In this document: in pieces, positions 30 to 41,505 of the stretch
How positions within the stretch are numbered: the stretch's first letter is position 1
Layout: each line of letters starts with the position of its first letter
From: Nitrospirota bacterium
GTDB lineage: Bacteria > Nitrospirota > Thermodesulfovibrionia > Thermodesulfovibrionales > UBA1546
Assembly: GCA_016208875.1 (NCBI GenBank)
Contig: JACQXD010000006.1
Span: forward strand, 1 to 41,505
DNA: 41,505 nt
Reading direction: 5' to 3'
Program-made: the position numbers and the translations under genes
Notes under the pieces: model-generated
What the model was told of the DNA's origin: nothing
Database searches by the model: none
Seen by the model: only the letters and a program-made list of their open reading frames with translations

Positions 30-320
30 CGATAATACAAATATCAAATTTCAAATTGTAAAATTACCAATTATCATTCCAAATTTAAAATGATAATTTT
101 GTATTGATGAACCTCCCCGCCGCAGAGACGGCGGGGTATCAAAAAAATAAATCGTACTTTGTCATTCTCGCTTGTCGGGAATCCTTCTGACCCCCTCTTT
201 GGCCAAGAGGGGTTAGGGGAGATTTATTGAAAATTTATTTATTCAAAAATCCCCCTTCATCCCCCTTTGCCAAAGGGGGAATATAAGGACACCCCACAGC
301 AGAGACTGTGGGGTATTGAA
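30..320. repeat. AT-rich 7-nt-periodic array (30-110) followed by a mosaic of five GC-rich hairpin modules (111-320)
   Basis: The array reads atatcaa/atttcaa/attgtaa/aattacc/aattatc/attccaa/atttaaa. The hairpins are at 115-136, 161-184, 191-212, 261-279 and 292-313. Confidence 0.8.
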
Positions 321-386
321 AAATTAATAAATTTACATGGATAAGATTTAGAGCCAATCTTAGTAAGAGTTTATGAATAATATTTA

Positions 387-1526
387 CTATTTCAACAACA
401 GTTCTTCTGCGACTGCAACACCTGACCCGAGTTTTACGGGATGTCCCATTCCCCTTAGAACCATCTCAACGCCTGCAACCGCAGTTATGACGTCGAATGT
501 GTCTGCATAGCCGAGGTGTGCAATCCTGAATATCTTGCCCTTTACGTGGTCCTGGCCGCCGGCTGCCGTTATACCGTATTTCTCCCTGAGATTCTTATAT
601 ATTTCCTGTCCGTCGATCCCTGAAGGGGCGCATACCGCCGTCACTGCATTGCTGGGAGATTCCTTCGGAAAAAGTTCAAGACCGATTGCCAGCATCGCCT
701 TTCTCGTTGCATCCGCCAGTCTTTCATGGCGACTGAAAACATTTTCAATGCCCTCTTTCCGGAGCATCTTGATACATTCATTCAGGCCTATTATCAATGT
801 AACGGGAGATGTGAAATTGGTCTGGTTCTTTGCAAGGTTCTCACGCTCTTTTTTAAAGTTAAAATAAAACCTCGGACATTTTGATCTCTCTGCAAATTTC
901 CATGCCTTCTCGCTTATCCCTACAAATGCAAGTCCCGGAGGAAGCATCACACCTTTCTGGGAACCACCTATCATTATATCTATTCCCCATGCATCCATTT
1001 TAAGATCATGGGCAACAAGTGCGGATATCGCATCAACGATGAGGATTGTATTCTCATATTTTTTAACGATTCTTGCAAGTGCTTCGATGTCGTGGTAAAC
1101 ACCGGTTGACGTCTCGGATGCCTGCACAAATATACCTTTAATGGAAGTATCTTTCTTTAATTTCTCCTCTACAATCTCAGATTTGACTGCATAACCCCAT
1201 TCGACAACCATCTCATCGGTATTAAGGCCGTATGCCTTGCATATCTTTGTCCACCTTTCTCCGAATTTGCCGCCGTTTATGGTAATAACTTTATCTCCGG
1301 GGCTAAAGAAATTATTTACTGCACCTACCATTCCGCCAGTACCTGTCGAACATAAAATCAGGACATCGTTTTTCGTCTGATAAAGCCATTGGAGTCCCTT
1401 CTTCGCTGCATCCAGAACAGGTAGAAAATCCGGCGACCTGTGATGTATTATAGGCATTGCCATGGCCAATAATGCTTCCGAAGGTACAGGGGTCGGCCCT
1501 GGTGCTAAAAGGTAACGTTTCAACAT
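387..1526 (-). CDS. Class V PLP-dependent aminotransferase (serine-pyruvate / alanine-glyoxylate aminotransferase type)
   Basis: 379-aa ORF. N-terminus LLAPGPTPVP, an internal SQKG Lys-PLP-type motif and overall length are typical of AGXT/SgaA-like class V aminotransferases. Confidence 0.85.
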   Translation of the reverse strand: MLKRYLLAPGPTPVPSEALLAMAMPIIHHRSPDFLPVLDAAKKGLQWLYQTKNDVLILCSTGTGGMVGAVNNFFSPGDKVITINGGKFGERWTKICKAYGLNTDEMVVEWGYAVKSEIVEEKLKKDTSIKGIFVQASETSTGVYHDIEALARIVKKYENTILIVDAISALVAHDLKMDAWGIDIMIGGSQKGVMLPPGLAFVGISEKAWKFAERSKCPRFYFNFKKERENLAKNQTNFTSPVTLIIGLNECIKMLRKEGIENVFSRHERLADATRKAMLAIGLELFPKESPSNAVTAVCAPSGIDGQEIYKNLREKYGITAAGGQDHVKGKIFRIAHLGYADTFDVITAVAGVEMVLRGMGHPVKLGSGVAVAEELLLK

Positions 1527-1625
1527 GAAAACCTCCTGAGGATTTAAGTGAACCCTTTGAAAAATTAAGATACAGTATATTTTTCAAGCAGGGTACGATA
1601 GTTTATATTTTTGGGAGTGATGTAG

Positions 1626-2501
1626 TCAAGGTTTGGTGATTGACCGCCCCTTATCAATCATCTGAATAAGAGAATCCGCATCCTTATACCCCGGTATAAG
1701 GATGCCGTCAGGGAATATAATTGCAGGAGTTCCTGTAATCCCGAGCTTCTGGGCAAGTTTTATATTTTCGTCGAGTACCGTTGTCTCGCATTTAGGTTTC
1801 GGAATCGGTTTTTTCTCAAAGGCATCCTCAAGGAGCGCAAGGGATTTTTCACAGGCTATCGCCTTCGATTTCTCATACGCATCTTTGTGCATCGGCAGAG
1901 GATACAGTTTAATGTAAAAGGCAATGTCTTTCCTTTTTTCTATAACCTTCTTCATCTCCTGATGAAGTTTGCCGCAGAATGGTCAATCCGGGTCGTCGAA
2001 GACTATAATTTTATGTTTGGCGTCTTTGTCACCCATCACAAGGGCGTCATCGAGAGGTATGCCGGATACGTCAACCCTATTAATATCCTGAAGTCTCTCG
2101 CCCGTAAGGTTTGCTCTGGTCTTTATATTTAATAGGTTGCCGAATATAATATGTTGTTTTGAGAAATCGAGATACCCGATTACCTTCCGAGACTCTGCCT
2201 CAAAGGCAACCTCCCAGAACCCTTTAACGGGACCGGGTCGCACTTCAATGACCTTTACATCGGGGATGGTCATATCTTCCTTTAGCACCTTTAGTGCTTC
2301 GTCTTTAGACAACTGATGACACTTTGCACAATCATGATTTTTCTTCTGTATATGCAACCTCTGTTTTTTCGATACCGCCTTTTTGCCGGCATATACGACA
2401 GAGTTCGTAAGGCATAATAAAAGACCTGTGAAAACAAATAGCGACAAAATTCCACAATTTTGAAATTTGAAATTTGAAATTTGAAATTTCATGTTACGCA
2501 T
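1626..2501 (-). CDS. DsbC-family thiol:disulfide interchange protein, probable selenoprotein (U-P-F-C redox motif)
   Basis: Two same-frame ORFs (1983..2501 and 1626..1955) are separated only by TGA at 1983-1985. Read-through gives ...IIVFDDPD-U-PFCGKLHQEMKK..., so the TGA sits where the first Cys of the thioredoxin-fold CxxC belongs. The downstream half aligns to E. coli DsbC (C..C.KLH.QM ... GTPAIIFPDGILIPGY). An N-terminal signal peptide ends at VYA/GKK. Confidence 0.8.
1950..1967 (-). promoter_or_regulatory. Candidate bacterial SECIS hairpin downstream of the in-frame UGA
   Basis: On the minus strand the sequence is UGA + 15 nt, then CUUCAUC-AGGA-GAUGAAG. This is a perfect 7-bp stem with a G-containing apical loop starting about 22 nt after the UGA, within the spacing range described for bacterial SECIS elements. 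Confidence 0.5.
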
Positions 2502-2668: not shown

Positions 2669-2920
2669 ATGAAATTTGTTAATATCCGCGAGTTCAGTTC
2701 CTCTGCGACAAGGCTTCTCAGGGATGACGTTGAAAAAGGAGAAAGGGTCATAATCACCCGGCGCGGTAAACCCGTTGGTCTGATGCTTTCTTTTAAAGAT
2801 AAGGCAGCTATTGCCGATGCATTGCTTGAGGAAGCGGGAACCCTGCTTAGAGACATCGGGATAAAAGAGCGAGATGTCCTGAGAACTCTCGAAAAGGTGA
2901 GAGAGAAAATCTATGCCTAA
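2669..2920 (+). CDS. Type II antitoxin, Phd/YefM (prevent-host-death) family
   Basis: MKFVNIREFSSSATRLLRDDVEKGERVIITRRGKPVGLMLS matches the Phd/YefM N-terminal pattern. GGAGG lies 8 nt upstream of the ATG at 2669. The gene overlaps the downstream PIN gene by 8 nt. Confidence 0.7.
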   Translation: MKFVNIREFSSSATRLLRDDVEKGERVIITRRGKPVGLMLSFKDKAAIADALLEEAGTLLRDIGIKERDVLRTLEKVREKIYA

Positions 2921-4586: not shown

Positions 4587-4599
4587 TATTGATGGAAAA

Positions 4600-5328
4600 T
4601 TATGATGTCCCTTTTCTTTTCCCCCATTTTATTATCTCCTCCACCATTGCCTCGATGGTTGCATTAATCGGCATTATATGAACCTTAAGCCCTGCTTTCT
4701 CGACTGCCCTGGCAGTTACAGGACCGATAACTGCGATTGCTACATCCTCAAGCAGATCATCGGCATCCTCTCCGATCATCTCTCTGAAGTTATTGAATGT
4801 TGCAGCACTCGTAAATGTTGCTACGGATATCCGCCCTTCTTTTAAAAATCTTTTTAACCTCTTCCCATGCTTCTCAGGTTTAATTGCACGATAGGCAACA
4901 GGGACGTCAATCTCTCCTCCGAGTTCTCTGACCTTTTCAGGAAATATCTCCCTCGCCTTTTCAGCCCGGGGCAATAGAAATCTCATTCCTTTGAAAATAT
5001 CCGGATTCGAGGTTTGCGAGATTGATTCATGATGCACGATACATGATACATGATTTTTTTTATCCTGAATCCTGTATCCTGAATCCTGTATCCTGTTTTT
5101 TATAAACGCTTCTATCAGTCCTTCCGCATTGAATTCATCGGGCATTAAGTCTACTTTCATACCATATTTTCTAATCTCCGCCCCTGTCTTTGACCCGATT
5201 GCGCAGACCTTTATCCCCTTCAAATCCCTGATATCTTTATCCCTTTCGATGAACCTCTTCATGAAAAACTTAACACGAAGAATACAATCTATGTGTAATC
5301 GGTATCCCTGCGTAGGCAGGTGCTGCAA
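4600..5328 (-). pseudogene. hemD: Uroporphyrinogen-III synthase (HemD) domain lacking about the first 70 residues; 3' part of a disrupted cobA-hemD fusion
   Basis: FFMKRFIERDKDIRDLKGIKVCAIGSKTGAEIRKYGMKVDLMPDEFNAEGLIEAF ... RFLLPRAEKAREIFPEKVRELGGEIDVPVAYR matches HemD from its first-domain return strand onward. No HemD N-terminus is present. It contains a 25-aa insert encoded by heptamer repeats. Confidence 0.55.
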
Positions 5329-7140: not shown

Positions 7141-7205
7141 AAAAGCGTCAAAGTATCAAAGTTCAAAGACTCTGACACTCTGATACTGTGATACTTTGAT
7201 ACTTC
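7141..7205. repeat. Heptamer-periodic imperfect palindrome (GTATCAAAG ... CTTTGATAC)
   Basis: tcaaagtatcaaagttcaaag...ctgtgatactttgatac lies between feoA and the small membrane protein gene. Confidence 0.8.
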
Positions 7206-7458: not shown

Positions 7459-7544
7459 ACTCGCTGTTTACCTCAATCTGGAACTTTCCCTTCCCCTGCG
7501 TACCCGTGTCGTCCGTGATCAAAGGATGAGCGGCATGAGAGACG

Positions 7545-7586
7545 GTGAATAGTGAAAAGTGAATAGTGAAAAGTGAATAGTGAATA
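7545..7586. repeat. Six tandem heptamers (GTGAATA/GTGAAAA) in the feoA leader
   Basis: Read directly from the sequence: gtgaata gtgaaaa gtgaata gtgaaaa gtgaata gtgaata. Confidence 0.9.
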
Positions 7587-7668
7587 GCAGAGAAAACGCA
7601 AGAACCCTCACCCTTAACCCTTTTACTTTGAATCTTAGACCCTGAAACTTCATTGCTTCCTCCTTTAC

Positions 7669-7687
7669 AATATTGATATTCATTATC
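7669..7687. promoter_or_regulatory. Fur box upstream of feoA
   Basis: AATATTGATATTCATTATC matches the 19-bp consensus GATAATGATAATCATTATC at 16/19 positions. It lies about 210 nt upstream of feoA. Confidence 0.5.
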
Positions 7688-7705
7688 AATTAATGAACAA
7701 AAAAA

Positions 7706-8175: not shown

Positions 8176-8223
8176 AATACCATAAAGATATGACTCCTGT
8201 CAAGTCTTTTTTGCAGTTGTGTC

Positions 8224-8576
8224 AATTAAAAATTAAAAGTGAACTACTCTTTTTCTAAGAAAATGGATATTACTAAGGAATACATACGTAAAGCCACACG
8301 CTCGTCATTCCCGCAAGCGAAGCGCGTCGGGAATCTTTCTGTAAACAAAGAAGGATTCCGGACAAGCCGGAATGACCGCTTTGAGGCTTTGTTATGTTAG
8401 TTCTTAGTAACATTACTTGGTATAATTGCGTCATGCCCGAAGTTCTTAATCGGGCATCCAGTATATTACTTAATGTCTGGATTCCCGCTTACTGACTGCG
8501 GGAATGACAAATAATGTGACATTCACTATATTCAGGTGTTCACTTTTAATTCGTAAACAGTTCACTTTTAAATTTT
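8224..8576. repeat. Nested-palindrome mosaic element (outer arms AATTAAAAGTGAAC / GTTCACTTTTAATT)
   Basis: Outer arms are at 8231-8244 and 8538-8551. Inner arms are TTACTAAGGAATACATACGTAAAGCC and GGCTTTGTTATGTTAGTTCTTAGTAA. The cores are ATTCCCG..CGGGAAT and ATTCCGG..CCGGAAT hairpins. Confidence 0.8.
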
Positions 8577-8654
8577 AGCTAACAGAATTTTTTGAAGTTG
8601 TCTCTGAAACAAAGATAGAACACAAACAAAAGATCGGGAAGGCCGGTTGAATTT

Positions 8655-12627: not shown

Positions 12628-12645
12628 ATCCAAACACATTAAATT

Positions 12646-12728
12646 CCAATAACCAAATCTCAAATTCCAAATAATTACCAATAACCAATTTTCAAATTCA
12701 AGTTTGGTTATTGAGATTTGGTTATTGG
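12646..12728. repeat. CCAATAACC-family heptamer palindrome, copy 1 (18-bp perfect stem 12646-12663 / 12711-12728)
   Basis: ccaataaccaaatctcaa ... ttgagatttggttattgg. It directly abuts the stop codon of the MBL hydrolase gene. Confidence 0.9.
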
Positions 12729-13703
12729 TCATTCTCTTTTATTATATTCCATCATCGCTTCTTTTTCAGGAGCGTCAGGACACTCCCTGTATTTCGGGGA
12801 GAAATGCATGACGACAAGACTCTTTACACCTGCTTCCCTCGCAATCCTGCCGGCAGTCTTTGCAGTCAGGTGATGCCTTTCTATTGCCCGTTCTCTGTCC
12901 TCTTCAAGGAAATACGCCTCACAGTAAAGCGTATCGGAATCCTTCGCAAGCTCTATTACCTTTCTTATGTTCTCCTCGTTCATTGAAGAGTCGGCCACAT
13001 AAGACATCTTCTGCCCCTTTGTTATATTTGCTATCGGCGTTAATTCACCCAATGTATATCGTCTGTTCTTGACTATAAACTCGGTATCCGAGGATCCCCC
13101 AACCCTAATCACCTTTTTAAATTCCGACAGCCACGGTCCTACGGGAAGTCCCATTTCAACCAGCACCGCCTTATCTACGTTGATATGGAACTCCTCATTT
13201 AGAGAAAAACCGAGACAGGGTATCTGGTGCATAAGACACGCAGCCCTAATCTCAAAAGGAGTTTCTTTGAGAACGATCCCATCAAATGGTCTTTCACCCA
13301 GATCAATCCTCCTGAAGCAATTCCCGGCATAAAAACCAGAATGCCTTACAATATTTTCCTCTATACCGAAGGCCTCGATCTTAAGCGGATATTCGCTGAT
13401 CAGATTCCACGTATACCCCTTAAGTTTTCCCTCGATACACCCGATAATATTAGCCGGTCCAAAGACCCTTAGTGGAATTTCTCGTCGCAGAAGGGACCTC
13501 AGGAGAATGTCGAAACCTATAAAGTGGTCTATATGTGTATGGGTAACAAAGACATCCGTTATCTTCTGGATATCGCCTGGATCCAGTCTGCTTATACATC
13601 CAAGGTCAAAGAGAAAGGCACGCTTTTCTCTTAATACCCTCACATGCACACAAGGATCTTCGAAAGGATTATTTACGAGTCTGTGATGAAAAGTAGGCTT
13701 CAT
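12729..13703 (-). CDS. MBL-fold metallo-hydrolase, ribonuclease Z/BN-like
   Basis: 324 aa with VTHTHIDH (HxHxDH) and a later MHFS motif. The architecture resembles RNase Z-type beta-lactamase-fold nucleases. Confidence 0.7.
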   Translation of the reverse strand: MKPTFHHRLVNNPFEDPCVHVRVLREKRAFLFDLGCISRLDPGDIQKITDVFVTHTHIDHFIGFDILLRSLLRREIPLRVFGPANIIGCIEGKLKGYTWNLISEYPLKIEAFGIEENIVRHSGFYAGNCFRRIDLGERPFDGIVLKETPFEIRAACLMHQIPCLGFSLNEEFHINVDKAVLVEMGLPVGPWLSEFKKVIRVGGSSDTEFIVKNRRYTLGELTPIANITKGQKMSYVADSSMNEENIRKVIELAKDSDTLYCEAYFLEEDRERAIERHHLTAKTAGRIAREAGVKSLVVMHFSPKYRECPDAPEKEAMMEYNKRE

Positions 13704-13734
13704 ATCCTATTGTGATATAATTATCATATAAAAT

Positions 13735-13935
13735 TAAAGTTTAAAATTCAAAATGCAAAAAAAATTTAAAGAAGTGTCAGTGATTAGTGTCTGTGCCAGT
13801 ATGGTTCGACAGGCTCACCATGACTGTTACCCTGAGTTCTTCGACTTATGTCATCCTGAGCTTGTCGAAGGGTGACACTGTTAACCGACACCTGTCACTA
13901 TTTTGCATTTTTATATTTGATTTTTGAATTTATTA
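13735..13935. repeat. Nested palindromic mosaic in the divergent promoter region between the MBL-hydrolase and galT-like genes
   Basis: Arms are AAATTCAAAATGCAAAA and TTTTGCATTTTT..TTTGAATTT, with GTGTCAGTGATTAGTGTC-type inner arms. The cores are ATGGTTCGACAGGCTCACCAT and GTCATCCTGAGCTTGTCGAAGGGTGAC hairpins. Confidence 0.8.
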
Positions 13936-13945: not shown

Positions 13946-14941
13946 ATGTCTGAGCTTAGAAAAGATCCAATCGTTGGGCGCTGGGTTATAATATCCATCG
14001 AGAGAGGCAAGAGGCCTACTGATTTTATATCACCTTCCCAAAAGAAGAAGGGCGGGTTTTGCCCCTTCTGTCCGGGTAATGAACATACGGCTCCACCGGA
14101 GATAATGGCGTTCAGACCTGCCCAGACAAAGCCTAATCTCCCGGGATGGACCCTACGTGTTGTGCCGAATAAATTTCCAGCGCTCCAGATACATGGGGAT
14201 CTGACTAAGACGGGAGAAGGTATTTTCGACAGGGTAAACGGTATAGGAGCCCATGAGGTAGTTATAGAGACTGCCGATCATAATCTTTCCCTCTCGACAA
14301 TGCCGATTAAGGCGGTTGAGGATGTATTGTGGGCATATTATCTGAGACTTAATGATCTTAAGAAAGACAAAAGATTCAGGTATGGTTTGATATTTAAGAA
14401 TGAAGGGGAAGACGCAGGCGCCTCTTTGGAACACACGCACAGCCAGCTTATAGCCCTTCCTATAGTACCCAAGCTTGTGAGGGAGGAGATCGATGCATCG
14501 GAGCAGTATTTCCATTTTAAGGAGAGGTGTATTTTCTGTGATGTTATAAATCAGGAACTCGAAGACGGCAAACGTGTTATCTATGAAAATAAAAATTATC
14601 TCGCCCTTGCCCCATTCGCGCCGAGGGCGCCCTTTGAGACATGGATTTTACCCAAGAAGCACGAATCTGCCTTCTGTCCTCCCGATAAGGACTTCGCAAT
14701 GCTTGCAGATATATTGCAAAGGATACTTAAACAGATCGACAGGATACTCGACGTCCCGCCGTATAACTTTATTGTTCATACTTCACCGTTTTCCGATGAG
14801 ACTAACGATTATTATCATTGGCATATCGAGCTGATGCCCAAACTCACAAAGATAGCCGGTTTTGAATGGGGTTCGGGTTTTTATATAAATCCGACACCGC
14901 CTGAGGAGGCAGCAAAATTTATGAGAGAGGCGAAAATATGA
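13946..14941 (+). CDS. GalT/HIT-superfamily nucleotidyltransferase (galactose-1-phosphate uridylyltransferase-like / ADP-glucose phosphorylase-like)
   Basis: CPFCPGNE zinc-knuckle motif, VVPNKFPAL and the active-site EHTHSQ (HxHxQ). GGAGG lies 6 nt upstream of the start. Confidence 0.8.
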   Translation: MSELRKDPIVGRWVIISIERGKRPTDFISPSQKKKGGFCPFCPGNEHTAPPEIMAFRPAQTKPNLPGWTLRVVPNKFPALQIHGDLTKTGEGIFDRVNGIGAHEVVIETADHNLSLSTMPIKAVEDVLWAYYLRLNDLKKDKRFRYGLIFKNEGEDAGASLEHTHSQLIALPIVPKLVREEIDASEQYFHFKERCIFCDVINQELEDGKRVIYENKNYLALAPFAPRAPFETWILPKKHESAFCPPDKDFAMLADILQRILKQIDRILDVPPYNFIVHTSPFSDETNDYYHWHIELMPKLTKIAGFEWGSGFYINPTPPEEAAKFMREAKI

Positions 14942-15060
14942 ATGACCAATAACCAAATCTCAATAACCAAACTTGAATTTGAAAATTGGTTATTGGTAAT
15001 TATTTGGTAATTGGGATTTGGTTATTGTAATTTATTTAGTGATTGGGATTTAGTGATTGG
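14942..15060. repeat. CCAATAACC-family heptamer palindrome, copy 2 (inverted orientation relative to copy 1)
   Basis: Over 14946-15027 it is nearly identical to the reverse complement of 12646-12728. The 7-nt periodicity continues for about 16 units, up to the glgA RBS. Confidence 0.9.
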
Positions 15061-15068: not shown

Positions 15069-16439
15069 TTGAAGATACTGATTGCAACACCCGAGGCAGT
15101 GCCGTTTGCAAAGACAGGCGGTCTTGTATATAAAAGAGTGAAAGAGGCCTTCAATCCTAAGAATACGGGGGTAAAGGTAAAAGTACCTGTAGGTAATCAG
15201 AATTTTACAGGTAAGATATACAGCAAAGGAACTTCGGTATATTTCATCAAAAGAGACGAGTTTTTTGATAGAGAAGATCTCTACGGCACACCGCAAGGAG
15301 ACTATGCCGATAACGCAGCTCGCTTTATATTTTTTTCAAGAGGAATTCTTGAGGCGTGCAAGGCACTTAAAATTAAACCCGATATAATCCACTGTCATGA
15401 CTGGCAGACGGGACTCGTACCTTTATATTTGAAAACCATATATAAGCCTGATAAATTCTTCAATAAGACCTCCACTGTAATTACGGTTCATAATCTCGGT
15501 TATCAGGGGCTGTTTTCCCCATCCGAGATGCCGTTAACCGGCCTTGATCGGGCATTGTTCAATCCCGAGGGGATAGAATTTTACGGCAAGATAAATTTTT
15601 TAAAGGCGGGGTTGATCTCGGCTGATTTAATAACCGCAGTCAGCGATAACTATTCAAAGGAGATACTTAACAAAGAATACGGATTTGGACTTGAAGGTGT
15701 TTTAAAGAAAAGGTCAGCGTCGCTGTCAGGGATTATAAATGGGATAGATTACGGCGAGTGGAATCCCAAGACAGATATTTTTATAGCAAAAAAATATAGC
15801 GATTCCGATATCGCCGGCAAGAGAGAATGCAAACAGCAGCTTTTGAAGGATTGCTTTATAAAACCGAATGCCGAAATGCCTGTTGTAGGCATGGTCGGAA
15901 GATTATCGAGCCAGAAAGGGCTTGATCTTGTCTTAGAATCGATCGAGGGGATCGTATCTACCGGTGCATATCTTATTATCATAGGTAAAGGAGATGAGAT
16001 GTTCCATAAAAGGTTATCCGAAACAGCAGAAAAATATAAGGGCAACATACACGTAAAGATAGGATTTAACGACGCCCTTGCTCATAAGATATATGCCGGT
16101 TCCGATATATTCCTGATGCCGTCAAAATACGAACCTTGCGGTCTCGGCCAGATGATTGCTATGAGATACGGGACAATACCTGTGGTAAGGAAGACAGGCG
16201 GACTTGCAGACACGGTCTCGGACTATGAACCCCTAATAGGCGCCGGCACGGGTTTTCTTTTTGAAGATTATAATCGGTCAGCACTTCAGGATTGCCTGAA
16301 GAGGGCAATGTGCGTATATGTTGATAAGCCAAGGTGGCAGAATCTTATCCGGAATGCAATGAAAATGGACTTTTCATGGAATGCCTCTGCAAAAAAGTAT
16401 GTCAATCTTTTTAGAAAGGCTATAAAAATGAAACAATGA
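15069..16439 (+). CDS. glgA: Glycogen/starch synthase (GT5), with a shortened N-terminal segment
   Basis: KILIATPEAVPFAKTGGL..., HCHDWQTGL, VHNLGYQG and the C-terminal PSKYEPCGLGQM and TGGLADTV motifs. A TTG start at 15069 has GGAGG 5 nt upstream, so it is preferred over the ORF-track start at 15057. Confidence 0.85.
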   Translation: MKILIATPEAVPFAKTGGLVYKRVKEAFNPKNTGVKVKVPVGNQNFTGKIYSKGTSVYFIKRDEFFDREDLYGTPQGDYADNAARFIFFSRGILEACKALKIKPDIIHCHDWQTGLVPLYLKTIYKPDKFFNKTSTVITVHNLGYQGLFSPSEMPLTGLDRALFNPEGIEFYGKINFLKAGLISADLITAVSDNYSKEILNKEYGFGLEGVLKKRSASLSGIINGIDYGEWNPKTDIFIAKKYSDSDIAGKRECKQQLLKDCFIKPNAEMPVVGMVGRLSSQKGLDLVLESIEGIVSTGAYLIIIGKGDEMFHKRLSETAEKYKGNIHVKIGFNDALAHKIYAGSDIFLMPSKYEPCGLGQMIAMRYGTIPVVRKTGGLADTVSDYEPLIGAGTGFLFEDYNRSALQDCLKRAMCVYVDKPRWQNLIRNAMKMDFSWNASAKKYVNLFRKAIKMKQ

Positions 16440-16440
16440 G

Positions 16441-16530
16441 CAATGACCAAATCTCAATAACCAAACATTTGGAACTTGGTACTTGGTTATTGGAATTTAT
16501 TTGGTTATTGATACGTGGTTATTAATTATT
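16441..16530. repeat. CCAATAACC-family heptamer element, copy 3 (diverged)
   Basis: atgaccaaatctcaataaccaaac is shared with copy 2, then ttggaac/ttggtac/ttggtta/ttggaat units follow. It ends at the kinase RBS. Confidence 0.8.
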
Positions 16531-16546
16531 TGAGGTGTTTTCAGAT

Positions 16547-22394: not shown

Positions 22395-22595
22395 TGGTAT
22401 ACTTAACAAGAAATACATAAGTAAAACTACGTTGTCATTCCCGCAAGCGAAGCGCGTCGGGAATCTTTTCCCTTATGTCACTCCCGCTTGTCGGGAGTCC
22501 TTCTTTAAGAAAGATTCCGAACAAGTCGGAATGACGGTAGACCCGACAAGCCGGAATGACCGCTTCGAGGCTTTGTTATGTTAGTTCTGAGTAAA
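22395..22595. repeat. Second copy of the 8268-8410 mosaic, with extra hairpin modules
   Basis: A 33-nt block identical to 8305-8337 (gtcattcccgcaagcgaagcgcgtcgggaatct) and a roughly 43-nt near-identical tail (ccggaatgaccgctt.gaggctttgttatgttagttct.agtaa). Confidence 0.85.
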
Positions 22596-25896: not shown

Positions 25897-25899
25897 AAG

Positions 25900-30468: not shown

Positions 30469-30505
30469 AATTATTCAAATTAATCCATATAATGCAATTT
30501 TCGGG

Positions 30506-30659
30506 GTAACCATTCAGTCACGAGTGGACAAGCAAATTCCCCTCTTTGGAAAAGAGGGGTTAGGGGAGATTTTATTGAATGGTTTCTGCATTATATAAAA
30601 ATCCCCCTACATCCCCCTTTGCCAAAGGGGGAATAATCCACCTTTCACTGAAGGGTTAC
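30506..30659. repeat. Nested palindromic mosaic; inner part is a second copy of 189-288
   Basis: Outer arms are GTAACCATTCAGT (30506-30518) and ACTGAAGGGTTAC (30647-30659). The inner sequence, cccctctttgg.aaagaggggttaggggagatt...aaaaatccccc..catccccctttgccaaagggggaat, is shared with 191-282. Confidence 0.85.
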
Positions 30660-30679
30660 TTTTCGGGTTAAATAAATCT

Positions 30680-32821
30680 TTACTTGCCTACCTTTGTTTT
30701 CCCGACAACTGGTTCCGACATTAATCCATTGGTACCGAATATATTAAACGCAGCTACTTTATAGTAGAAGGTTAATCCCTCTGCCATGTCCTCGTTATCC
30801 TCATAAAGGGTATTATCCCTTCCGTCAACCTCACCTATTTTTTGATAATTGCCGTCGCTTTTTGGACTTCTGAATATTCGATACCCCTCAACCTCCGGCT
30901 CTCTGTTGGGGGTCCACCGCAGCGTTATCTTTTTAGCAGAATTGCCTTCTGTCACAACCCCTGCCGGTACAGATACCTGCTTCCTGATCCTGTCATTCTT
31001 TGTTATCGGGATATCGGTATCGCTTATGGCTGCATAGGCCGTTCTCGGCATCAATTCTTTAACTTTAATCGTTCCGACAAATATTTCTTCTATCTGTAAG
31101 AGTTCACCCGTCTTTGGATCCTTCAAATTTTTTCCCGTTCTGAAAACAACATATTTATCACCTTTTTTAACTCCATCTATCGTACCGAGAGAGATTGTCG
31201 CTTTTTCCTTTTCGCTGTTAATATCGAGTATGAATCCTTCCGTATATGGTTCAAGGCTTATTACCTTAAGCTTATAAGGGGCCCCTTTACTACGTGATTC
31301 GGCACAATTATTTTGCAGATCACAGGCCGATACGTAATATTCGAGTGTTGCTCCCTTTTTGAGATAGATATCGGGTATTACTGTATCATAGGTGCCTTTT
31401 GATGAACCCGACATCTTTATACTCTGATAGTTTATCTCGCCTTCTATCCTGAGCATCAGTGCGGCTTCACCCACTGCCTGGTTATCTATGATCATGGCCT
31501 TTATAAAATTCTTATTTTCCTTTACTGCCTTTACAAGTGGTTCAACCCTTATCTCCGGCTCTTGAGTATCTATCTCCAACAGTATCTCATTTATTTCCGA
31601 CATACTGTCTTTAGCAATAGTTACCGATATGTTTTTCTCCACATAGCCTTCCCTCTTAAGTTTTACAATGTATTGTTTTGCAGGGATCGAATCAATCTTG
31701 AGGGGGGTTGTACCGTAATTTTTGTCATCGATTATTACATCTACTGCTGAAGGGTCGGTCTTTACGGAAAGACTTCCTATATATGGGGTAAGTCGATAGG
31801 TCTTCTCGGTGAGAAGGGTTCTGACATCAATAGTTTCTTCCTGTTCTTCATAGCCCTCTTTTACTACCCTTATCCTATGAAGCCCGGTCGATACATTTTC
31901 TATAATAAATGGTGTTTCGCCCTTGGCAGCCTCATCCCAGAATACCTCTGCCTTTTCGGGCACGGAAGATACCTTGACATCGAAGGTTATCCGCGACAAT
32001 CTCAGATTCATATCCGTGATTTCATCGGCTTTTACGGTAATCTTCTGCGTCGATTCGATATAACCGGTTTTTAAGATGCTGATCGTGTGATCACCGACAA
32101 AAACGTCTTTTATCAGGATAGGGGTTGCACCAATCGCCTTGCCGTCAAGATATACTGTTGCACCTGCGGGATCGGATATTACCGATAAGGTACCACCGGT
32201 CTGAAAATCAGCCGTAATGCTGACATCTCTGCCCGGCTCGGAGGTTATGGTCTTAACGACTTCCTGGCCTCCAGCTGTTACCTTAACAGTATGCATACCG
32301 GGCAAAAGGTCATTGACGATAACGGGCACCATTCCCTTCTCGATACCATCTATAACCACTTTTGCAATAGGGATATTTGCTTTTACGGTAATACCCGAAA
32401 GATTTTGCGAAATGATCTCTTTATAAAGCGAAATAACCTTTGGAGGATACAGTTCGGGGTTGAGAGTTTTATGCGGTGCTGCCATAAAAGCATTTTTGAA
32501 ATATTCCCTTGCCGGGTTTTCTTTGCCCTTGCCGAGATAGGACATCCCTATATACAGGTTGGCTGTAAAGAGACCTTCATTCCTTATATTATCATCAGGC
32601 CTTTTATTCAATTCATTTATTACTTGCTTGAATTCTCCTATCGCCTTATCAAAAGCCCCTTTTTCGTAAAGCGATATAGCCTTTTCGATATCGACCGAAT
32701 AGTCTTCGGCACCTACATAAGAATGCAAAAATAAAAAAGTAAAATTCAAAATTAATGTAAAAATTAAAATTCCTAAATTTGGAATTTGGAATTTGGAATT
32801 TGGAATTTTCATTACCCTCAT
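30680..32821 (-). CDS. Exported TPR-like / multi-PEGA-domain / FN3 protein
   Basis: 713 aa with a signal peptide and at least 5 PEGA-type repeats (e.g. SDPAGATVYLDGKAIGATPILIKDVFVGDHTISILKTGY). The C-terminal fibronectin-III-like module is ITLRWTPNREPEVEGYRIFRS...YYKVAAFN. The start ATG overlaps the kinase stop (ATGA). Confidence 0.8.
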   Translation of the reverse strand: MRVMKIPNSKFQIPNLGILIFTLILNFTFLFLHSYVGAEDYSVDIEKAISLYEKGAFDKAIGEFKQVINELNKRPDDNIRNEGLFTANLYIGMSYLGKGKENPAREYFKNAFMAAPHKTLNPELYPPKVISLYKEIISQNLSGITVKANIPIAKVVIDGIEKGMVPVIVNDLLPGMHTVKVTAGGQEVVKTITSEPGRDVSITADFQTGGTLSVISDPAGATVYLDGKAIGATPILIKDVFVGDHTISILKTGYIESTQKITVKADEITDMNLRLSRITFDVKVSSVPEKAEVFWDEAAKGETPFIIENVSTGLHRIRVVKEGYEEQEETIDVRTLLTEKTYRLTPYIGSLSVKTDPSAVDVIIDDKNYGTTPLKIDSIPAKQYIVKLKREGYVEKNISVTIAKDSMSEINEILLEIDTQEPEIRVEPLVKAVKENKNFIKAMIIDNQAVGEAALMLRIEGEINYQSIKMSGSSKGTYDTVIPDIYLKKGATLEYYVSACDLQNNCAESRSKGAPYKLKVISLEPYTEGFILDINSEKEKATISLGTIDGVKKGDKYVVFRTGKNLKDPKTGELLQIEEIFVGTIKVKELMPRTAYAAISDTDIPITKNDRIRKQVSVPAGVVTEGNSAKKITLRWTPNREPEVEGYRIFRSPKSDGNYQKIGEVDGRDNTLYEDNEDMAEGLTFYYKVAAFNIFGTNGLMSEPVVGKTKVGK

Positions 32822-34425: not shown

Positions 34426-34426
34426 C

Positions 34427-36741: not shown

Positions 36742-36747
36742 TGTTTA

Positions 36748-36893
36748 CCCTGTGTCAGTGTTCAGTGTCCGTATTTTCAGTGTCTGTGTCAGTCCTCAGT
36801 GTCAGTTTTTTGCTGACACTGACACTATTCACTGACACTGATTTACTGTCACTGACACTGTTTTGTTGACACTAATCACTGACACTGTTCAGT
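36748..36893. repeat. Long imperfect palindrome of GTGTCAG/CTGACAC words centred on CAGTGTCAG-ttttttg-CTGACACTG
   Basis: The central perfect 9-bp stem is at 36797-36805 / 36813-36821, and the flanks repeat the same words. The right arm overlaps the ribBA 3' end. Confidence 0.85.
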
Positions 36894-38092
36894 ATATGGC
36901 CTAATTTCTTCTTCTTTGTCTTTAGATAGATAATATTTTTTTCATGCGGCTTCGTCTCTATCGGGACCCTCTCTACAACCTTCAGCCCGTATCCTTCAAG
37001 ACCTACAATCTTCTTGGGATTATTTGTCATCAGTCGCATCTTCCTTACACCGAGATCAACAAGCATCTGGGCACCTATACCGTAATCTCTGAGATCCGGC
37101 TTAAATCCAAGCTTTATATTCGCCTCCACAGTGTCGAGTCCCTTATCCTGCAGTTCGTATGACTTCAATTTATTAACCAGCCCTATGCCCCTTCCTTCCT
37201 GCCTCATGTACAGGACAACGCCCTTTCCCTCTTTCCTAACAAGCTCCATAGCCTTATGAAGTTGCTCACCGCAATCGCATCTCCTTGAACCAAAGACATC
37301 ACCTGTGAGGCATTCCGAATGCACTCTTACAAGGACTTCATCCTCATGTTTTATCTCCCCCTTTACAAGAGCAATATGGATATTGTTGTCCAGATCATTA
37401 GCGTATGCGAAAACCGTAAAATCTCCACCGTACTCTGTGGGCAGTTTTGTAACCGATATCCGTTTGACAAAAAGCTCTGCCCGCATCCTGTATTTAATAA
37501 GGTCTTTGACCGTTACAATCTTCATGTTATGTTTTTTGGAAAATTCCATGAGTTGGGGGACCCGCGACATTGTGCCGTCATCGTTCATGATCTCACATAT
37601 AACCCCTGCGGGATATAGCCCTGCAAGCCTTGCAAGATCGACAGAGCCTTCGGTCTGGCCGGCCCTCTGCAGCACACCTCCAGGTTTTGCCCTTAAAGGG
37701 AAAATATGTCCCGGTTTTGCAAGGTCTTCAGGATTTGTCTTTGGATTGATTGCCGTAAGTATTGTGGTTGCCCTATCAGAAGCCGAGATCCCTGTTGTCA
37801 CACCTTTTTTGGCCTCTATCGAGACTGTAAAGGCTGTACCAAAGGGCGAGGTATTATCATCCGTCATCATTTGAAGTTTTAACTGTCCCACCCGCTCCGT
37901 GGTAAGGGAAAGGCATATAAGCCCCCTGCCGTGTTTTGCCATAAAATTAATTGCATCGGGAGTCGCCTTCTCAGCCGCCATGCACAGATCTCCTTCGTTT
38001 TCGCGATCCTCATCGTCAACAAGGATGATCATCTTTCCCTTAGTTATATCATCTATTGCCTCGTCAATTGTATTGAATTTATACTTTTCCAT
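36872..38092 (-). CDS. ribBA: Bifunctional 3,4-dihydroxy-2-butanone-4-phosphate synthase / GTP cyclohydrolase II
   Basis: [11 protein letters not shown], the Zn site [18 protein letters not shown], and RQEGRGIGL. The last 6 codons plus the stop lie inside a repeat array. Confidence 0.95.
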
Positions 38093-38101
38093 TGTAAAAA
38101 C

Positions 38102-38136
38102 CGTTACACGTTACGCGTAACGCGTTACGAGTTACG
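38102..38136. repeat. Five heptamers CGTTACA/CGTTACG/CGTAACG/CGTTACG/AGTTACG forming a palindrome between ribE and ribBA
   Basis: ccgttacacgttacgcgtaacgcgttacgagttacgg. It contains the ribE stop codon and ends 9 nt upstream of the ribBA ATG. Confidence 0.85.
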
Positions 38137-38785
38137 GATTCGTATATCCTCCTTCCATCAGAGTCTTCATAAAACCTGAATCTCTGCTGCCGTTTTTATT
38201 CAAAAATTTTGCAACATACTTTCCAAGAATGTCCACCTCGATGTTTACGGTATCTCCGGCACTCTTAAGGCCGATTGTAGTAAGCCTTGCCGTATGCGGG
38301 ATTATTACAACCCTAAAACCATCCCTCAAAACATCGACAACCGTAAGGCTGATACCATCTACGGCAACAGATCCCTTTTCGACAAGAAAATTTATTACAT
38401 CTGCCGGTGCCTCGATTTCAACCTTCATCATATCACCGACATTTATCTTTGAACGTATTTTACCTACGGTGTCGACATGTCCGGTTACAAAATGGCCGCC
38501 GATCTTTGAGTTAGCCCTCAATGAAGGCTCGAGGTTAATCTTATCCCCTGTCTTAAGGCTGCCGAGATTTGAACTTCTCAGGGTTTCATCAGAGAGGTCA
38601 AAAAAAAGTTCTGAATTCTGAGTTCTGAGTTCTGTGACTGTAAGACATACGCCATTTACTGAGATGCTGTCTCCCGTTTCTGCATCCGATGCAATCTCAT
38701 TTGCCCTTAACGAAAGTATCGCGCCACCGCTGCGTTTTTTAACCGCCGTTATATCGCCCATTTCAAGTATCAGACCGGTAAACAA
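38132..38785 (-). CDS. ribE: Riboflavin synthase (alpha subunit)
   Basis: MFTGLI...GDSISVNGVCLTV...ETL..SNLG...GD.INLE, with the motif duplicated in the second half (GSVAVDGISLTVV). Confidence 0.9.
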   Translation of the reverse strand: MFTGLILEMGDITAVKKRSGGAILSLRANEIASDAETGDSISVNGVCLTVTELRTQNSELFFDLSDETLRSSNLGSLKTGDKINLEPSLRANSKIGGHFVTGHVDTVGKIRSKINVGDMMKVEIEAPADVINFLVEKGSVAVDGISLTVVDVLRDGFRVVIIPHTARLTTIGLKSAGDTVNIEVDILGKYVAKFLNKNGSRDSGFMKTLMEGGYTNP

Positions 38786-38786
38786 A

Positions 38787-39751: not shown

Positions 39752-39774
39752 CCGAGATTCTCCTTATTCACCTT

Positions 39775-40776
39775 TTACCCCGCTATCTCTTTTGCCTTCG
39801 CAAGTCCATCCGTGACGGAAAATACAAGCCTTGCCGAGCCTATTATCCCCGCATCATTTCCCAGCGAAGACGGGATTATTTTTACCCTTTCAAAAATGGC
39901 CTTAAATGTCCTTCTGGACGCCTCTTTGATAGCCTCCTGCACATATATATTCCACGCACCGATAAGCCCACCGGTGAGGATTATAGCCTCGGGACTCAGT
40001 ATATTTATTATATTCGCAAAGCCTATACCAAGGTATCTCCCCGTATCTTTAAGTGCCTCCCTTGCAAGGTTGTCGCCCTCTAAGGCAAATTTATAAATAT
40101 CCTCTGTTGTCAGCTTATAATAATTACCCTCACAGCACTCTCTCAAGAGGCTTTCCGTCCCCTTTTCGAGTGCAGATATCACTTTTGTCTTCATTGCATT
40201 CGATGCAGCGTACAATTCAAGACATCCGGAGTTCCCGCACGGACATCTCTCGCCGTCCGCATTGATACTCATATGCCCGATCTCTGCAGCGACATCGGCA
40301 AGCCTCCCCTCATAGATGATCCCACCACCAATGCCGGTGCCGAGGGTGAGGAGGACAAAATCATTGAACTCCCTGCCGGCTCCCATCCATTTTTCTCCGA
40401 GTGCCGCAGCGCTGGCATCATTTTCGATAAATACAGTCACCGGGAATTGTTTTTGCAATAACTCCACAAAATTGACTCCTTCAACAGAATGTAGATTCGG
40501 GGAAAGAAGAACAACCCCTCTCTCTTTATCCACGAGTCCGGCTATTCCTATTCCTATGCCTGCAACATCATCCCGATATATGCTTCCTATCATCTTTTGC
40601 AGAGATTCCAGCACATTTCCCATGGAGGTCTCTTTTATTTTTTCGACGATCTCTCCATTGCGGGATATAAGGGCAACCCTTAAATTTGTTCCGCCGACAT
40701 CTATCCCTATGGCATATTTCTTTGACATAAATAGACTTATGAGGTTTAAAAATGAAGATTTTAAAAATTTTAACAT
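39775..40776 (-). CDS. ROK-family glucokinase
   Basis: YAIGIDVGGTNLRVA, ENDASAAALGE, GTGIGGGII and the Zn motif GHMSINADGERCPCGNSGCLE. An alternative start at 40728 (MSKKYAIGID) would remove an atypical 16-aa extension. Confidence 0.85.
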   Translation of the reverse strand: MLKFLKSSFLNLISLFMSKKYAIGIDVGGTNLRVALISRNGEIVEKIKETSMGNVLESLQKMIGSIYRDDVAGIGIGIAGLVDKERGVVLLSPNLHSVEGVNFVELLQKQFPVTVFIENDASAAALGEKWMGAGREFNDFVLLTLGTGIGGGIIYEGRLADVAAEIGHMSINADGERCPCGNSGCLELYAASNAMKTKVISALEKGTESLLRECCEGNYYKLTTEDIYKFALEGDNLAREALKDTGRYLGIGFANIINILSPEAIILTGGLIGAWNIYVQEAIKEASRRTFKAIFERVKIIPSSLGNDAGIIGSARLVFSVTDGLAKAKEIAG

Positions 40777-40920
40777 AAAAACCTTTATAGTGTAAAGAAT
40801 GGCAGATACAGAAATTGCCTGCTAAAGATATTACTTATCAAGTTTTTGTAGAACCATTCGTTGACTCATTAAGGTAATTCGTCACATTGAACCATTAAAT
40901 CGAGGAGTGTTATAGTTATT

Positions 40921-41505
40921 CATGGGAGCAACCGATGCTAAATGGAGTTTATTTTACAAACCCATCTTTCATCTTTTCCTTATAGCAATCGTCGGCTTTC
41001 TTGCTTACTCAGATACCTTCCGTGTGCCATTTCAGTTCGATGATATACCTAATATAGCCGAAAACTATAATCTTAGGGATTTAAGCAAATTCTGGCTTCC
41101 GTTAGAGTCAAGATGGTTTGGATCCTTGACATTTGCTCTAAACTATCGTCTTGGCAGTTTAGATGTAACAGGCTATCATATCTTCAACCTTTCAGTACAC
41201 ATTGCCAACGCAATCCTTGTTTACTTTCTCATGGTTTTAACATTTAAAACACCATACTTCGCAATGCGGAGTTCGGAATTCGGAGTTCGGAATTCAGAAA
41301 ATAATATTCCGCATTCCGCATTTGGCATTCCGCATTTCTTCTCGCCTATTCACCAATTCACCTATTTACCATTATTTATTTCTTTGCTATTCGTTGCACA
41401 TCCGATCCAGACACAGGCGGTCACATATATATTCCATAGTGTTACAACCCTTGCAACAATGTTCTATCTCTTATCGCTTGTGATTTATATAAAGTTCAGG
41501 ATACA
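40921..41505 (+). CDS. Polytopic membrane protein, TMTC/PMT-like glycosyltransferase N-terminus (DUF1736-type); 3' end outside window
   Basis: FRVPFQFDDIPNIAEN..., SLTFALNY..G.LDVTGYHIFNL..H and LLFVAHPIQTQAVTYI match the bacterial TMTC-like family. It carries a repeat-encoded insert. Confidence 0.6.

Follow-up and report, generated by a model that had tools for sequence, protein, structure and literature searches.

Heptanucleotide repeats have been fingerprinting targets since 1990 and are over-represented in many genomes, and their origin is unexplained. Among them are the short tandemly repeated repetitive (STRR) sequences of heterocystous cyanobacteria, which Mazel et al. reportedly described in 1990 and whose units are said to be CCCCAGT (STRR1), TTGGTCA (STRR2) and CAACAGT (STRR3). 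Related in description are the small dispersed repeats (SDRs) of Nostocaceae, reportedly presented by Elhai et al. in 2008 as tiny mobile repeats that form hairpins, have particular short sequences as precise insertion targets and can lie nested in other repeats, tandem heptamers included; SDRs were reported only from Nostocaceae, and their likeness to the elements treated here is one of description only. We have analysed a stretch of 41,505 nt from an uncultured bacterium of the Thermodesulfovibrionales, Nitrospirota (contig JACQXD010000006.1, in its full length "the window"), in which runs of heptamers form the arms of numerous hairpins, some of them enclosing GC-rich hairpins. In our judgement the chances are somewhat better than even that permissive spots in this DNA have been colonised, often in nested fashion, by several short gene-less hairpin families, the AT-rich ones being members, devoid of an open reading frame (ORF), of a class of hairpin cassettes that resemble the intervening sequences (IVSs) of 23S rRNA and carry a gene of the PF05635 family.

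Other heptamer repeats have been published, such as GGGAATC in Xanthomonas and GGGGAYT in Nostoc (PMC4692102), or TAACTGA in Beggiatoaceae, Cyanobacteria and Bacteroidetes (PMC4679880). Each Xanthomonas genome holds about 70 convergent pairs of heptamer arrays able to form hairpins, and the arrays, most of which have four units, vary in length and sequence at the same sites among close relatives (Rehm et al., PMC4692102). These reports treat the repeats as simple sequence repeats (SSRs) or regulatory sites, with no link to dispersed hairpins or to PF05635. The window resembles both the STRR and the other published repeats in its tandem heptanucleotide arrays, which lie in non-coding DNA, usually number about four units and often stand by start codons or between genes. 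It differs in that none of the published units is tandem in the window, which uses many units at once: tandem dimers of the three STRR units are lacking in any rotation and on either strand, the nearest sequences being TTGGTTA/TTGGTAA arms one base off STRR2, and TAACTGA, the unit of the system studied by MacGregor, is absent from the entire window.

The host is also different. The preliminary description of this DNA had taken heterocystous cyanobacteria as its frame of reference, whereas a cyanobacterial origin is ruled out because the cyanobacterial HIP1 octamer has a count of zero in the window and the locus is syntenic with metagenome-assembled genomes (MAGs) of Nitrospirota. The GalT-like gene used as query (13946-14941) shows 77-92% amino acid identity to its counterparts in 80 syntenic Nitrospirota/Thermodesulfovibrionales MAG loci, and the gene order mbl - galT - glgA - histidine kinase - response regulator - trmA is kept across about 10 kb in these relatives. 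Loci retrieved from related genomes, metagenomes and plasmids carry L-numbers in what follows (e.g. L001-L080, L133).

A further system for comparison is the 23S rRNA IVS with its S23p (PF05635) ORF. The terminal inverted repeats of the IVS form a stem with S23p in the loop, and RNase III cuts this stem; in Coxiella, Leptospira and others, IVSs are regarded as selfish elements tolerated within a transcribed essential unit, the mechanism of their mobility being unexplained (PMC4990558). The window elements share with IVSs the long terminal inverted repeats and the stable stems, and differ from them in that no element holds an ORF, in their location outside rRNA and perhaps also in their stems, which are built of heptamer units. 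An RNA family search found no rRNA in the window, its only Rfam match being a tRNA-Thr (12556-12627).

Heptamer hairpins and their turnover in Nitrospirota

According to the preliminary description, runs of near-identical heptamers at about 18 loci form the arms of imperfect inverted repeats and cover some 2 kb, or 5%, of the window; the listed loci in fact total 2173 nt (5.2%). Measured against shuffles, lag-7 identity lies above background as had been supposed, with z=8.8 in intergenic DNA, 3.7 kb in all (z=5.0 at lag 14, with shoulders at lags 6 and 8), and z=3.8 in the whole window, where the 3-nt periodicity of coding DNA dominates. Period-7 arrays number 16 in the window and period-14 arrays 8, where 50 shuffles that preserve dinucleotides average 0.82 and 0.16. 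With Tandem Repeats Finder (TRF), 13 of the 18 loci show an array of period 7 or 14, and 7141-7205 shows one of period 8. The program reports no period-7/14 array at 12646-12728, a near-identical inverted copy of the element at 14942-15060, nor at 17588-17631, 22395-22595 and 30506-30659, which are not heptamer runs but GC-rich hairpins or clusters with a miniature inverted-repeat transposable element (MITE), as are large parts of 30-320 and 8224-8576. The role of the runs as arms of inverted repeats is borne out by strong folding at 13 of the 18 loci (z -3.5 to -8.0 versus shuffles). It does not extend to four arrays (2440-2500, 7519-7660, 32720-32815 and 38600-38640), which are mainly direct repeats without significant folding, or to the insert in the histidine kinase gene (17585-17635, z=-2.3). 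The nesting of GC-rich hairpins within the arms, also claimed at the outset, is present at 30-345, 8215-8580 and 13722-13935.

What these loci have in common is an architecture of periodic arms, hairpins and nesting, and to that extent the idea of one shared grammar stands; as a single system it dissolves into several separate repeat families superimposed on each other. There is no single heptamer motif, because 69 canonical units occur among 105 arrays, and a shared heptamer vocabulary is thus ruled out. Array length, in turn, is capped near 4-5 units, unlike a geometric tail: over the window and all retrieved loci (L001-L163), the period-7 arrays with 2, 3, 4, 5 and at least 6 copies number 82, 56, 60, 14 and 7. 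Their density in relatives ranges from 0 to 9 per 10 kb.

The heptamer hairpins are partly dispersed copies, since whole hairpins recur even though the units are diverse. Over 48 bases, positions 12667-12714 match 14960-15007 exactly in reverse complement, and with a third copy (16438-16534) they form a CCAATAA family in which each member begins at or next to the TGA stop codon of the upstream gene; another 19 nt are exactly shared by 13773-13791 and 36868-36886. Exact copies of the 21-mer core ACCAAATCTCAATAACCAAAC are present in 60 metagenome contigs with GC contents of 37-61%, in about 35 distinct contexts, and every copy keeps the same design of left arm, loop and right arm. The outer AAAATTC-type arms of the element at 13722-13935 are common to L001, L002, L008, L009 and L016, its inner part being unique to the window.

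Three orthologous spacers could be compared across dozens of species. The spacer between galT and glgA is an empty site of 0-17 nt in many relatives; where it is filled, it holds CCAATAA/TTGGTTA arms (window, L010, L026, L028), GTGTCAG/CTGACAC (L001), AATGCAA/TTTTGCA (L002) or AAGATTC and AATTTTA (L009), a heptamer hairpin within a heptamer hairpin (L011), or a G/C-tract hairpin (L022). In the 5′ untranslated region (5′UTR) of galT, an extended -10 box, TTGTGATATAAT, and the Shine-Dalgarno sequence are conserved, and the distance between them is filled by anything from 28 unstructured bases to 230 nt of nested hairpins: about 20 of 70 species have hairpins of z<=-3 with unrelated periodic arms, many 5′UTRs are short and unstructured, and in the window the loop is replaced by GTGTCAG-type arms that themselves enclose GC hairpins. 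The box (13704-13730 in the window) is nearly invariant across about 70 Nitrospirota species (L001-L080), and the 5′UTR behind it is hypervariable. At the third site, between glgA and the histidine kinase gene, the window element is orthologous to that of L001, and the site is empty in L002, L003, L006, L011 and L013. The elements thus come and go, because the same spacers in relatives hold unrelated heptamer hairpins or are empty; ancient, immobile sequences conserved in position, named beforehand as the outcome that would speak against the proposal, are not what is seen. The positions are permissive hot spots whose contents turn over. The same organism is present in three public read sets as Logan contigs of 0.9-1.8 kb (99.6-99.9% identity), which have no indels relative to the window and stop inside repeats, and hence give no empty-site information. 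Repeats of this kind break short-read assemblies.

The same comparison bears on a possible host function, in which the hairpins would be regulatory punctuation of RNA or DNA, serving as terminators, as arrays that bind proteins, as intercistronic processing sites or to stabilise 5′ ends, and selection would act at each site on their structure and not on their sequence. Such a function would suit the stereotyped positions of the elements, which separate the extended -10 box of galT from its Shine-Dalgarno sequence and, within the galT-glgA-histidine kinase operon, follow immediately on stop codons, as well as their strong folding and the persistence of structure in the galT 5′UTR of some 20 species despite unrelated sequence; moreover, reporter work in Nostoc suggests that heptamer repeats affect expression (bioRxiv 10.1101/2022.06.06.494920), and MacGregor proposed translational control by the TAACTGA repeats (PMC4679880). 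Nevertheless, many relatives keep the same genes and promoter with no element at these sites, one and the same site may be filled by a heptamer hairpin, by a G/C-tract hairpin or by nested mixtures, elements also lie in protein-coding loops and in a pseudogene, most have no terminator-like U tract, and about two thirds of the intergenic gaps in the window are occupied whatever the function of the flanking genes, all of which makes this explanation improbable.

Heptamer arms around PF05635 genes

In one of the metagenome contigs with the 21-mer (L133), a 115-aa ORF of PF05635/TIGR02436 lies exactly between CCAA-type arms. This family, named "four helix bundle protein", was first found within 23S rRNA IVSs. 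Close homologues of the ORF occur in Candidatus Omnitrophota between operon genes (type II secretion system (T2SS) E/F, hisF/hisI and leuB/asd), with ACCAAAC/TTGGTTA arms and nested GC hairpins. An identical Omnitrophota unit of about 0.7 kb, bounded by AAATAACCAA...TTGGTTATTT, is found with two left flanks and two right flanks; the identity starts with AAATAACCAAGATAC and ends with GGTGATTGGTTATTT, which are the outer ends of the arms, and since it ends there in differing flanks, the arms are part of what is repeated.

Among 72,556 plasmids searched with tblastn, the family turned up in 25 records only, from Nostoc, Planktothrix, Anabaena, Dolichospermum, Pseudanabaena, Aulosira, Bernardetia (Bacteroidota) and Candidatus Chlorohelix (Chloroflexota). 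All 12 plasmid genes examined lie beside a period-7/14 array, 11 of them with arrays on both sides, and the arms are mostly reverse complements of each other, 4-6 units long and made of a different heptamer each. The gene is thus enclosed by (CAATTCG)4.7 and (AATTGCG)4.9 in N. punctiforme pNPUN02, by (TAATTCG)4.7 and (AATTACG)4.7 in N. flagelliforme, by (TTCAAAA)5.3 and (AATTTTG)5.6 in Aulosira, by (AAGTCGG)4.6 and (ACTTCCG)5.7 as well as (GGGTGTG)3.9 and (ACACCCT)4.9 in pNPUN01, and by ATGAAGG and CCTTCAT in Chlorohelix. One unit of the window, AATTTGG (32727..32808), also flanks a PF05635 gene in Dolichospermum. In the first five plasmid regions, on which the enrichment was computed, an array lay <=60 nt from 8 of 10 PF05635 gene ends, compared with 9 of the 86 ends of other genes (Fisher p=7e-6).

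In the reading that we favour, the AT-rich hairpins of the window, with arms of about 4-6 heptamers, would be gene-less, MITE-like derivatives or relics of cassettes whose complete form has a PF05635/TIGR02436 gene in the loop. They would settle in permissive spots, namely 5′UTRs between promoter and ribosome-binding site, spacers just past stop codons and surface loops of proteins, and GC-rich elements (repetitive extragenic palindromic sequences, REPs, tagged with CGTC, G/C-tract hairpins and one MITE) would lodge preferentially in their loops. Copying would be carried out in trans by factors encoded elsewhere in the genome, and the arms would grow and shrink by slippage of 7 nt. Once transcribed, the stems would be cleaved as double-stranded RNA by RNase III in the manner of rRNA IVSs, and operons could thereby tolerate them. 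Pfam scans of about 50 window ORFs, which are ordinary housekeeping genes, returned no transposase or integrase, as the preliminary description had noted; the sole match with such a name was a sub-threshold HhH hit in RuvA. The elements are non-autonomous, as was also presumed there, because the window encodes no enzyme for them.

Several observations weigh against this reading. The window and 1.27 Mb of syntenic loci from Nitrospirota, searched with a narrow hidden Markov model and a motif, yielded no PF05635 gene, so that the partner is unproven for this genome, and only 1 of the roughly 35 distinct contexts of the 21-mer contains such a gene. To our knowledge, a four-helix-bundle protein has no transposase chemistry. 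Two of the Omnitrophota flank contexts may be assembly chimeras across the repeat, and the plasmid sample is small, rich in cyanobacteria, chosen for its likeness to a single protein and drawn from taxa in which heptamer repeats already abound. A clear target-site duplication is lacking at both MITE copies of the window and at the Omnitrophota unit; a possible TGAG duplication around the glgA-histidine kinase element is unconvincing. The published strict regular expression for the SRM motifs discussed below gives 0 matches in the window versus 0.19 in shuffles. Lastly, the extreme diversity of the heptamers, the arm pair of L009, which is not complementary, and some other arrays that are direct only fit local slippage too, and slippage alone accounts for part of the unit diversity.

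Slippage could in principle be the whole story, as in a published hypothesis (Mrazek 2007, quoted in PMC4692102): the arrays would be ordinary SSRs formed in place by polymerase slippage, which favours 7-nt units, their symmetry would come from template switching or weak selection, nothing would be mobile, and the proximity of PF05635 genes would be incidental. Besides the variety of units, which are almost all different, and the direct-only arrays, it is supported by arms that are more homogeneous internally than between partners (e.g. TCGGAAT versus GCGGAAT at 41258-41337) and by some orthologous 5′UTR hairpins that seem to share an ancestor and to have changed in copy number since (units with GTAG in L004, L005, L007, L013 and L014). 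It is difficult to reconcile with the exact 48-nt and 19-nt matches between distant loci, with one 21-mer kept in one architecture across contigs of such different GC content, with empty sites beside fully formed elements in close relatives, or with the different families of L014 and L016 at the same site; nor does it lead one to expect arrays that stop sharply at about 5 units, the enrichment at PF05635 gene ends, or an array beside every plasmid gene examined. As a complete explanation we find it unlikely.

The order of events could also be reversed, with heptamer hairpins that arise independently and attract PF05635 genes, REPs and MITEs into their loops. GC-rich REPs and a MITE are indeed nested in heptamer hairpin loops of the window, and heptamer hairpins lie within heptamer hairpins in L011 and at 13722-13935. 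Elhai et al. are said to report precise insertion of SDR5 into specific short sequences (HIP1). REP dimers inside long AT-rich palindromes are known from A. variabilis and H. neapolitanus (Di Nocera et al., PMC3733652). However, the Omnitrophota identity ends at the outer arm ends in different flanks, so the arms travel with the gene, and every PF05635 gene examined has a matched arm pair of its own; the probability of this alternative is low.

A wider version of the favoured reading would embrace bacterial heptamer repeats in general: STRR, the GGGAATC repeats of Xanthomonas and the arrays of Nitrospirota, Omnitrophota, Bacteroidota and Chloroflexota might all be arms or gene-less relics of one mobile class of PF05635/TIGR02436 cassettes, the 7-nt register and the 4-5 units per arm reflecting one unit per bound subunit of an oligomer, and the window might hold MITE-like derivatives that became landing pads for Ssn-type REPs. 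We put this forward tentatively, as a possibility to which we would give distinctly less than even chances. The crystal entry 2RLD, of a PF05635 family member, has five chains. Avd, the accessory protein of diversity-generating retroelements (DGRs), shares fold and family with the four-helix-bundle proteins and is a pentamer; one heptamer per protein subunit is speculation.

If the link holds, it ties together heptamer repeats, IVS/four-helix-bundle proteins and nested palindromic mosaics, and it predicts binding of the protein to the arrays, processing by RNase III and a PF05635 copy number that co-varies with heptamer load. IVS/four-helix-bundle proteins are very numerous in databases; their genes lie within cas, BREX/DISARM and housekeeping operons, and a role is known for them only in DGRs. 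Among the retrieved loci (L145-L158, L159-L169), PF05635 genes stand as lone insertions between cas2/cas1, drmD/pglX, helicase/methylase, fabH/M20 hydrolase, T2SS E/F, leuB/asd and TnsA/XisH, and resemble cassettes hitch-hiking in operons and defence islands; their presence inside cas operons was remarked on in 2013 and left unexplained (PMC3936711). Full-text literature searches retrieved no paper linking the family to heptamer repeats, and PMC4692102 makes no such link. The kinds of element in the window (heptamer SSRs/STRR, CGTC-REP/NTS, MITE, intragenic palindromic elements) are already known; what is apparently new is the Nitrospirota host and the link of heptamer-armed hairpins with PF05635 four-helix-bundle cassettes. 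Should this link fail, the window would still document, clearly and for the first time, STRR-like and NTS-like repeats in Nitrospirota.

CGTC-tagged palindromes, G/C-tract hairpins and a MITE

REPs tagged with CGTC, which include dRS3 of Neisseria and the Rickettsia palindromic elements (RPE), were defined by Di Nocera et al. in 2013, who also reported intragenic REPs (PMC3733652). Chenal et al. in 2025 extended dRS3 to NTS, CGTCATTCCCGCGMAVGCGGGAATCYRG, which is bound as single-stranded DNA and cut by the small GIY-YIG nuclease SsnA, and described NTS-related SRM motifs that adjoin Ssn genes in many phyla (PMC11893778).

The ATTCCCG..CGGGAAT modules of the window read (C/T)GTC-ATTCCCGC-loop-GCGGGAAT-CCAG and stand in head-to-head dimers. 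Seven hairpins of the (C/T)GTC-ATTCCCGC type lie at 8304, 8376, 8430, 8508, 22434, 22477 and 22535, and one more at 160; the head-to-head pairs are 8304/8376, 8430/8508 and 22477/22535, and those at 8430 and 8508 have ATCCAG tails. The copies show the unpaired CGTC/TGTC tag and the stem of 8-9 bp beginning with AT that characterise CGTC-REPs, and the window sequence GTCATTCCCGC...GCGGGAATCCAG equals the NTS consensus apart from loop length. The loops have 4-14 nt, mostly >5, versus 4-5 in the published class, and the strict SRM pattern finds nothing because of these longer loops; class membership was judged on tag, stem and tail, as the pattern gave no match. An exact NTS match with a 4-nt loop is present in a retrieved locus (L022:7415). 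By this comparison of motifs, the modules are CGTC-tagged REPs of the dRS3/NTS/SRM type. They share with CGTC-REPs, dRS3, NTS and RPE the C/TGTC tag, the 8-bp stem starting with AT, the ATCCAG tail, the head-to-head dimers and the mosaics, and one G/C-tract module of the window lies in frame within an ORF, as RPE do; they differ in their longer loops, of 9-14 nt in the copies set against NTS, and in their host, Nitrospirota not being among the phyla listed in 2013 (PMC3733652). To state that the elements match no known class, as was done at first, was too strong, because apart from these modules the REP dimers in palindromes, the intragenic REPs and the paired heptamer arrays had all been published.

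No Ssn gene (cd10448 GIY-YIG) was found by Pfam scans of the window or by a motif scan of 1.27 Mb of related loci, which returned only unrelated proteins. The heterodimer of 8430-8508 is present twice in another retrieved locus (L079, 3997-4775), where the two heterodimers, 700 nt apart, flank one ORF in a REP-gene-REP arrangement as for ssnA, with another gene. This ORF between the SRM pairs encodes an AbrB/MazE-like antitoxin and not Ssn.

The comparison with the REPINs and bacterial interspersed mosaic elements (BIMEs) of Proteobacteria is also instructive: they too consist of inverted REP doublets that form larger hairpins and of mosaic intergenic clusters, and REPINs are non-autonomous copies served by a single-copy gene elsewhere, the RAYT (PMC3116915). 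Unlike them, the window modules carry CGTC/TGTC tags, not GTAG, and REPINs have no counterpart of the heptamer arms; no RAYT or Y1 transposase occurs among the scanned window ORFs.

The G/C-tract hairpins are a two-tier family, with doublets at 192-283 and 30539-30635 (93-94% identical) and a single one in the histidine kinase gene; the family is abundant in L022. The two MITE copies (8273-8410 and 22402-22594) have in common terminal inverted repeats (TIRs) of about 26 nt, TTACTAAGrAaTAcATA..AAAGCC, and internal blocks 94-100% identical, the second copy containing an additional nested REP dimer; TIRs, a length of 100-300 bp, several copies and no ORF, the marks of a MITE, are all present. In the cluster at the left end of the window, two hairpins (115-137 and 292-314) have an identical 8-nt loop, GCAGAGAC, and the 3′ flank GGGGTAT(C/T)(A/G)AAAAA, and their stems differ by compensatory changes (CCCCGCC/GGCGGGG versus CCCCACA/TGTGGGG); no third copy exists in 1.8 Mb of retrieved loci.

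Elements within reading frames and other features of the window

Table 1. Repeat elements of the window, with strand, surroundings and folding z-score relative to shuffles.
Feature	Position	Strand	Context and parts	Fold z
Composite cluster	30..345	.	Downstream of aminotransferase gene (387-1526, minus); dG -114.5; outer AT-rich heptamer-like arms 38-91 and about 316-345; two hairpins with loop GCAGAGAC (115-137, 292-314); TGTC-tagged REP 160-188; G/C-tract hairpin doublet 192-283	-7.3
(TTTGAAA)x4.4 direct array	2459..2489	-	Right behind ATG of DsbC-like ORF; read as MKFQISNFKFQN	-0.8
Heptamer hairpin TGATACA x4.6 / TATCCTG x5.1	5023..5096	-	In C-terminal HemD fragment of cobA-hemD	-4.4
Period-8 hairpin	7141..7205	-	From FeoA stop codon to Shine-Dalgarno of next gene	-4.4
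(GTGAATA/GTGAAAA)x6.1 direct array	7545..7587	-	Between fur and feoA; no hairpin	+1.3
Outer inverted repeat AATTAAAAGTGAAC / GTTCACTTTTAATT	8215..8580	.	MITE (8273-8410, ~26-nt TIRs) with head-to-head CGTC-REP dimer 8304-8338/8351-8376; second REP dimer 8430-8461/8477-8508	-8.0
CCAATAA-family heptamer hairpin, copy 1	12630..12730	-	Starts at TGA stop of metallo-beta-lactamase-fold gene	-5.4
Nested element	13722..13935	+	5′UTR of GalT-like gene, between conserved extended -10 box and Shine-Dalgarno; outer AAAATTC/TTTTGCA arms, inner GTGTCAG arms, GC hairpins (GTCATCCTGAGCTTGTCGAAGGGTGAC and others)	-4.9
CCAATAA-family heptamer hairpin, copy 2	14940..15056	+	galT-like stop to glgA start	-3.5
CCAATAA-family heptamer hairpin, copy 3	16438..16534	+	glgA stop to histidine kinase start	-4.0
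Two-tier G/C-tract hairpin AATCCCC..CCCCCTTTGCCAAAGGGGG..GGGGATT	17588..17631	+	In frame, variable GAF-domain loop of histidine kinase; encodes NPLSPPFAKGGMGG	
MITE copy 2	22402..22594	+	Between trmA-like gene and ruvA; extra REP dimer nested	-4.4
G/C-tract hairpin doublet in 13-nt inverted repeat	30500..30665	-	PEGA gene stop to DNA-methylase start	-6.6
(AATTTGG)x4.7 and (AAAAATT)x4.3 arrays	32727..32808	-	Start of PEGA-domain ORF; read as MKIPNSKFQIPN	
GTGTCAG/CTGACAC-family long hairpin	36745..36895	-	ribBA stop to cyclase gene start	-7.1
Self-complementary (CGTTACG)x5 array	38095..38140	-	Between ribE and ribBA	-2.3
(AGTTCTG)x4 direct array	38607..38634	-	Within ribE coding sequence; encodes TELRTQNSELFF	
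TTCGGAA/ATTCCGC heptamer hairpin and (ATTCACC)x3 array	41255..41375	+	In-frame loop of PMT_2-like membrane protein	-5.1

The occurrence of elements inside ORFs (Table 1), another claim of the first account, stands for the histidine kinase, the membrane protein and ribE, and falls for hemD. In the histidine kinase, the insert lies in a GAF loop of variable length and amounts to a net +7 aa relative to L001, and the four heptamers of ribE are compatible with the reading frame. The PMT_2-like membrane ORF (40934-41503) stays open across 120 nt of heptamer hairpin and runs off the end of the contig; other Nitrospirae paralogues have hypervariable homologous loops that resemble translated heptamers, one peptide family matching the hemD insert of the window. 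These PMT_2-like proteins (P0002-P0039, from a Nitrospirae MAG with HY754 locus tags) are a multi-copy family with two hypervariable loops, and most HY754 copies are annotated as "partial" at contig ends, which suggests that repeats break the assemblies. In cobA-hemD (4600-5755, minus), the methylase domain reaches only profile position 134 of 212, where a stop follows ITHRLYSSC, and only the C-terminal HemD half continues, in another frame, with a 75-nt heptamer hairpin. Because the gene appears truncated and frameshifted, it offers no example of a tolerated insertion; that interpretation is ruled out, the gene being a remnant.

The elements also create spurious ORFs, as well as odd N-termini and loops in annotated proteins. 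Two secreted proteins, one DsbC-like and one with a PEGA domain, start with translated heptamers (MKFQISNFKFQN and MKIPNSKFQIPN). On the minus strand, at 2454-2501 and 32772-32821, these unrelated proteins begin with MRNMKFQISNFKFQN and MRVMKIPNSKFQIPN; here the heptamer arrays are apparently translated as n-regions of signal peptides, and the PEGA gene has no alternative start downstream. Between fur and feoA (7519-7689, minus) there is a 56-aa ORF, MKFQGLRFKVKG..., with a strong AGGAGG ribosome-binding site, whose second half is encoded by the GTGAATA array and which is either real or created by the repeat.

Among the housekeeping genes lie small genes of mobile or defence type, at 23472-23993, 24480-24770 and 2913-3335. 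The DNA-methylase fragment covers only profile positions 140-221 of 221 and adjoins a ParE-like toxin gene, and a PIN-domain gene is found elsewhere in the window.

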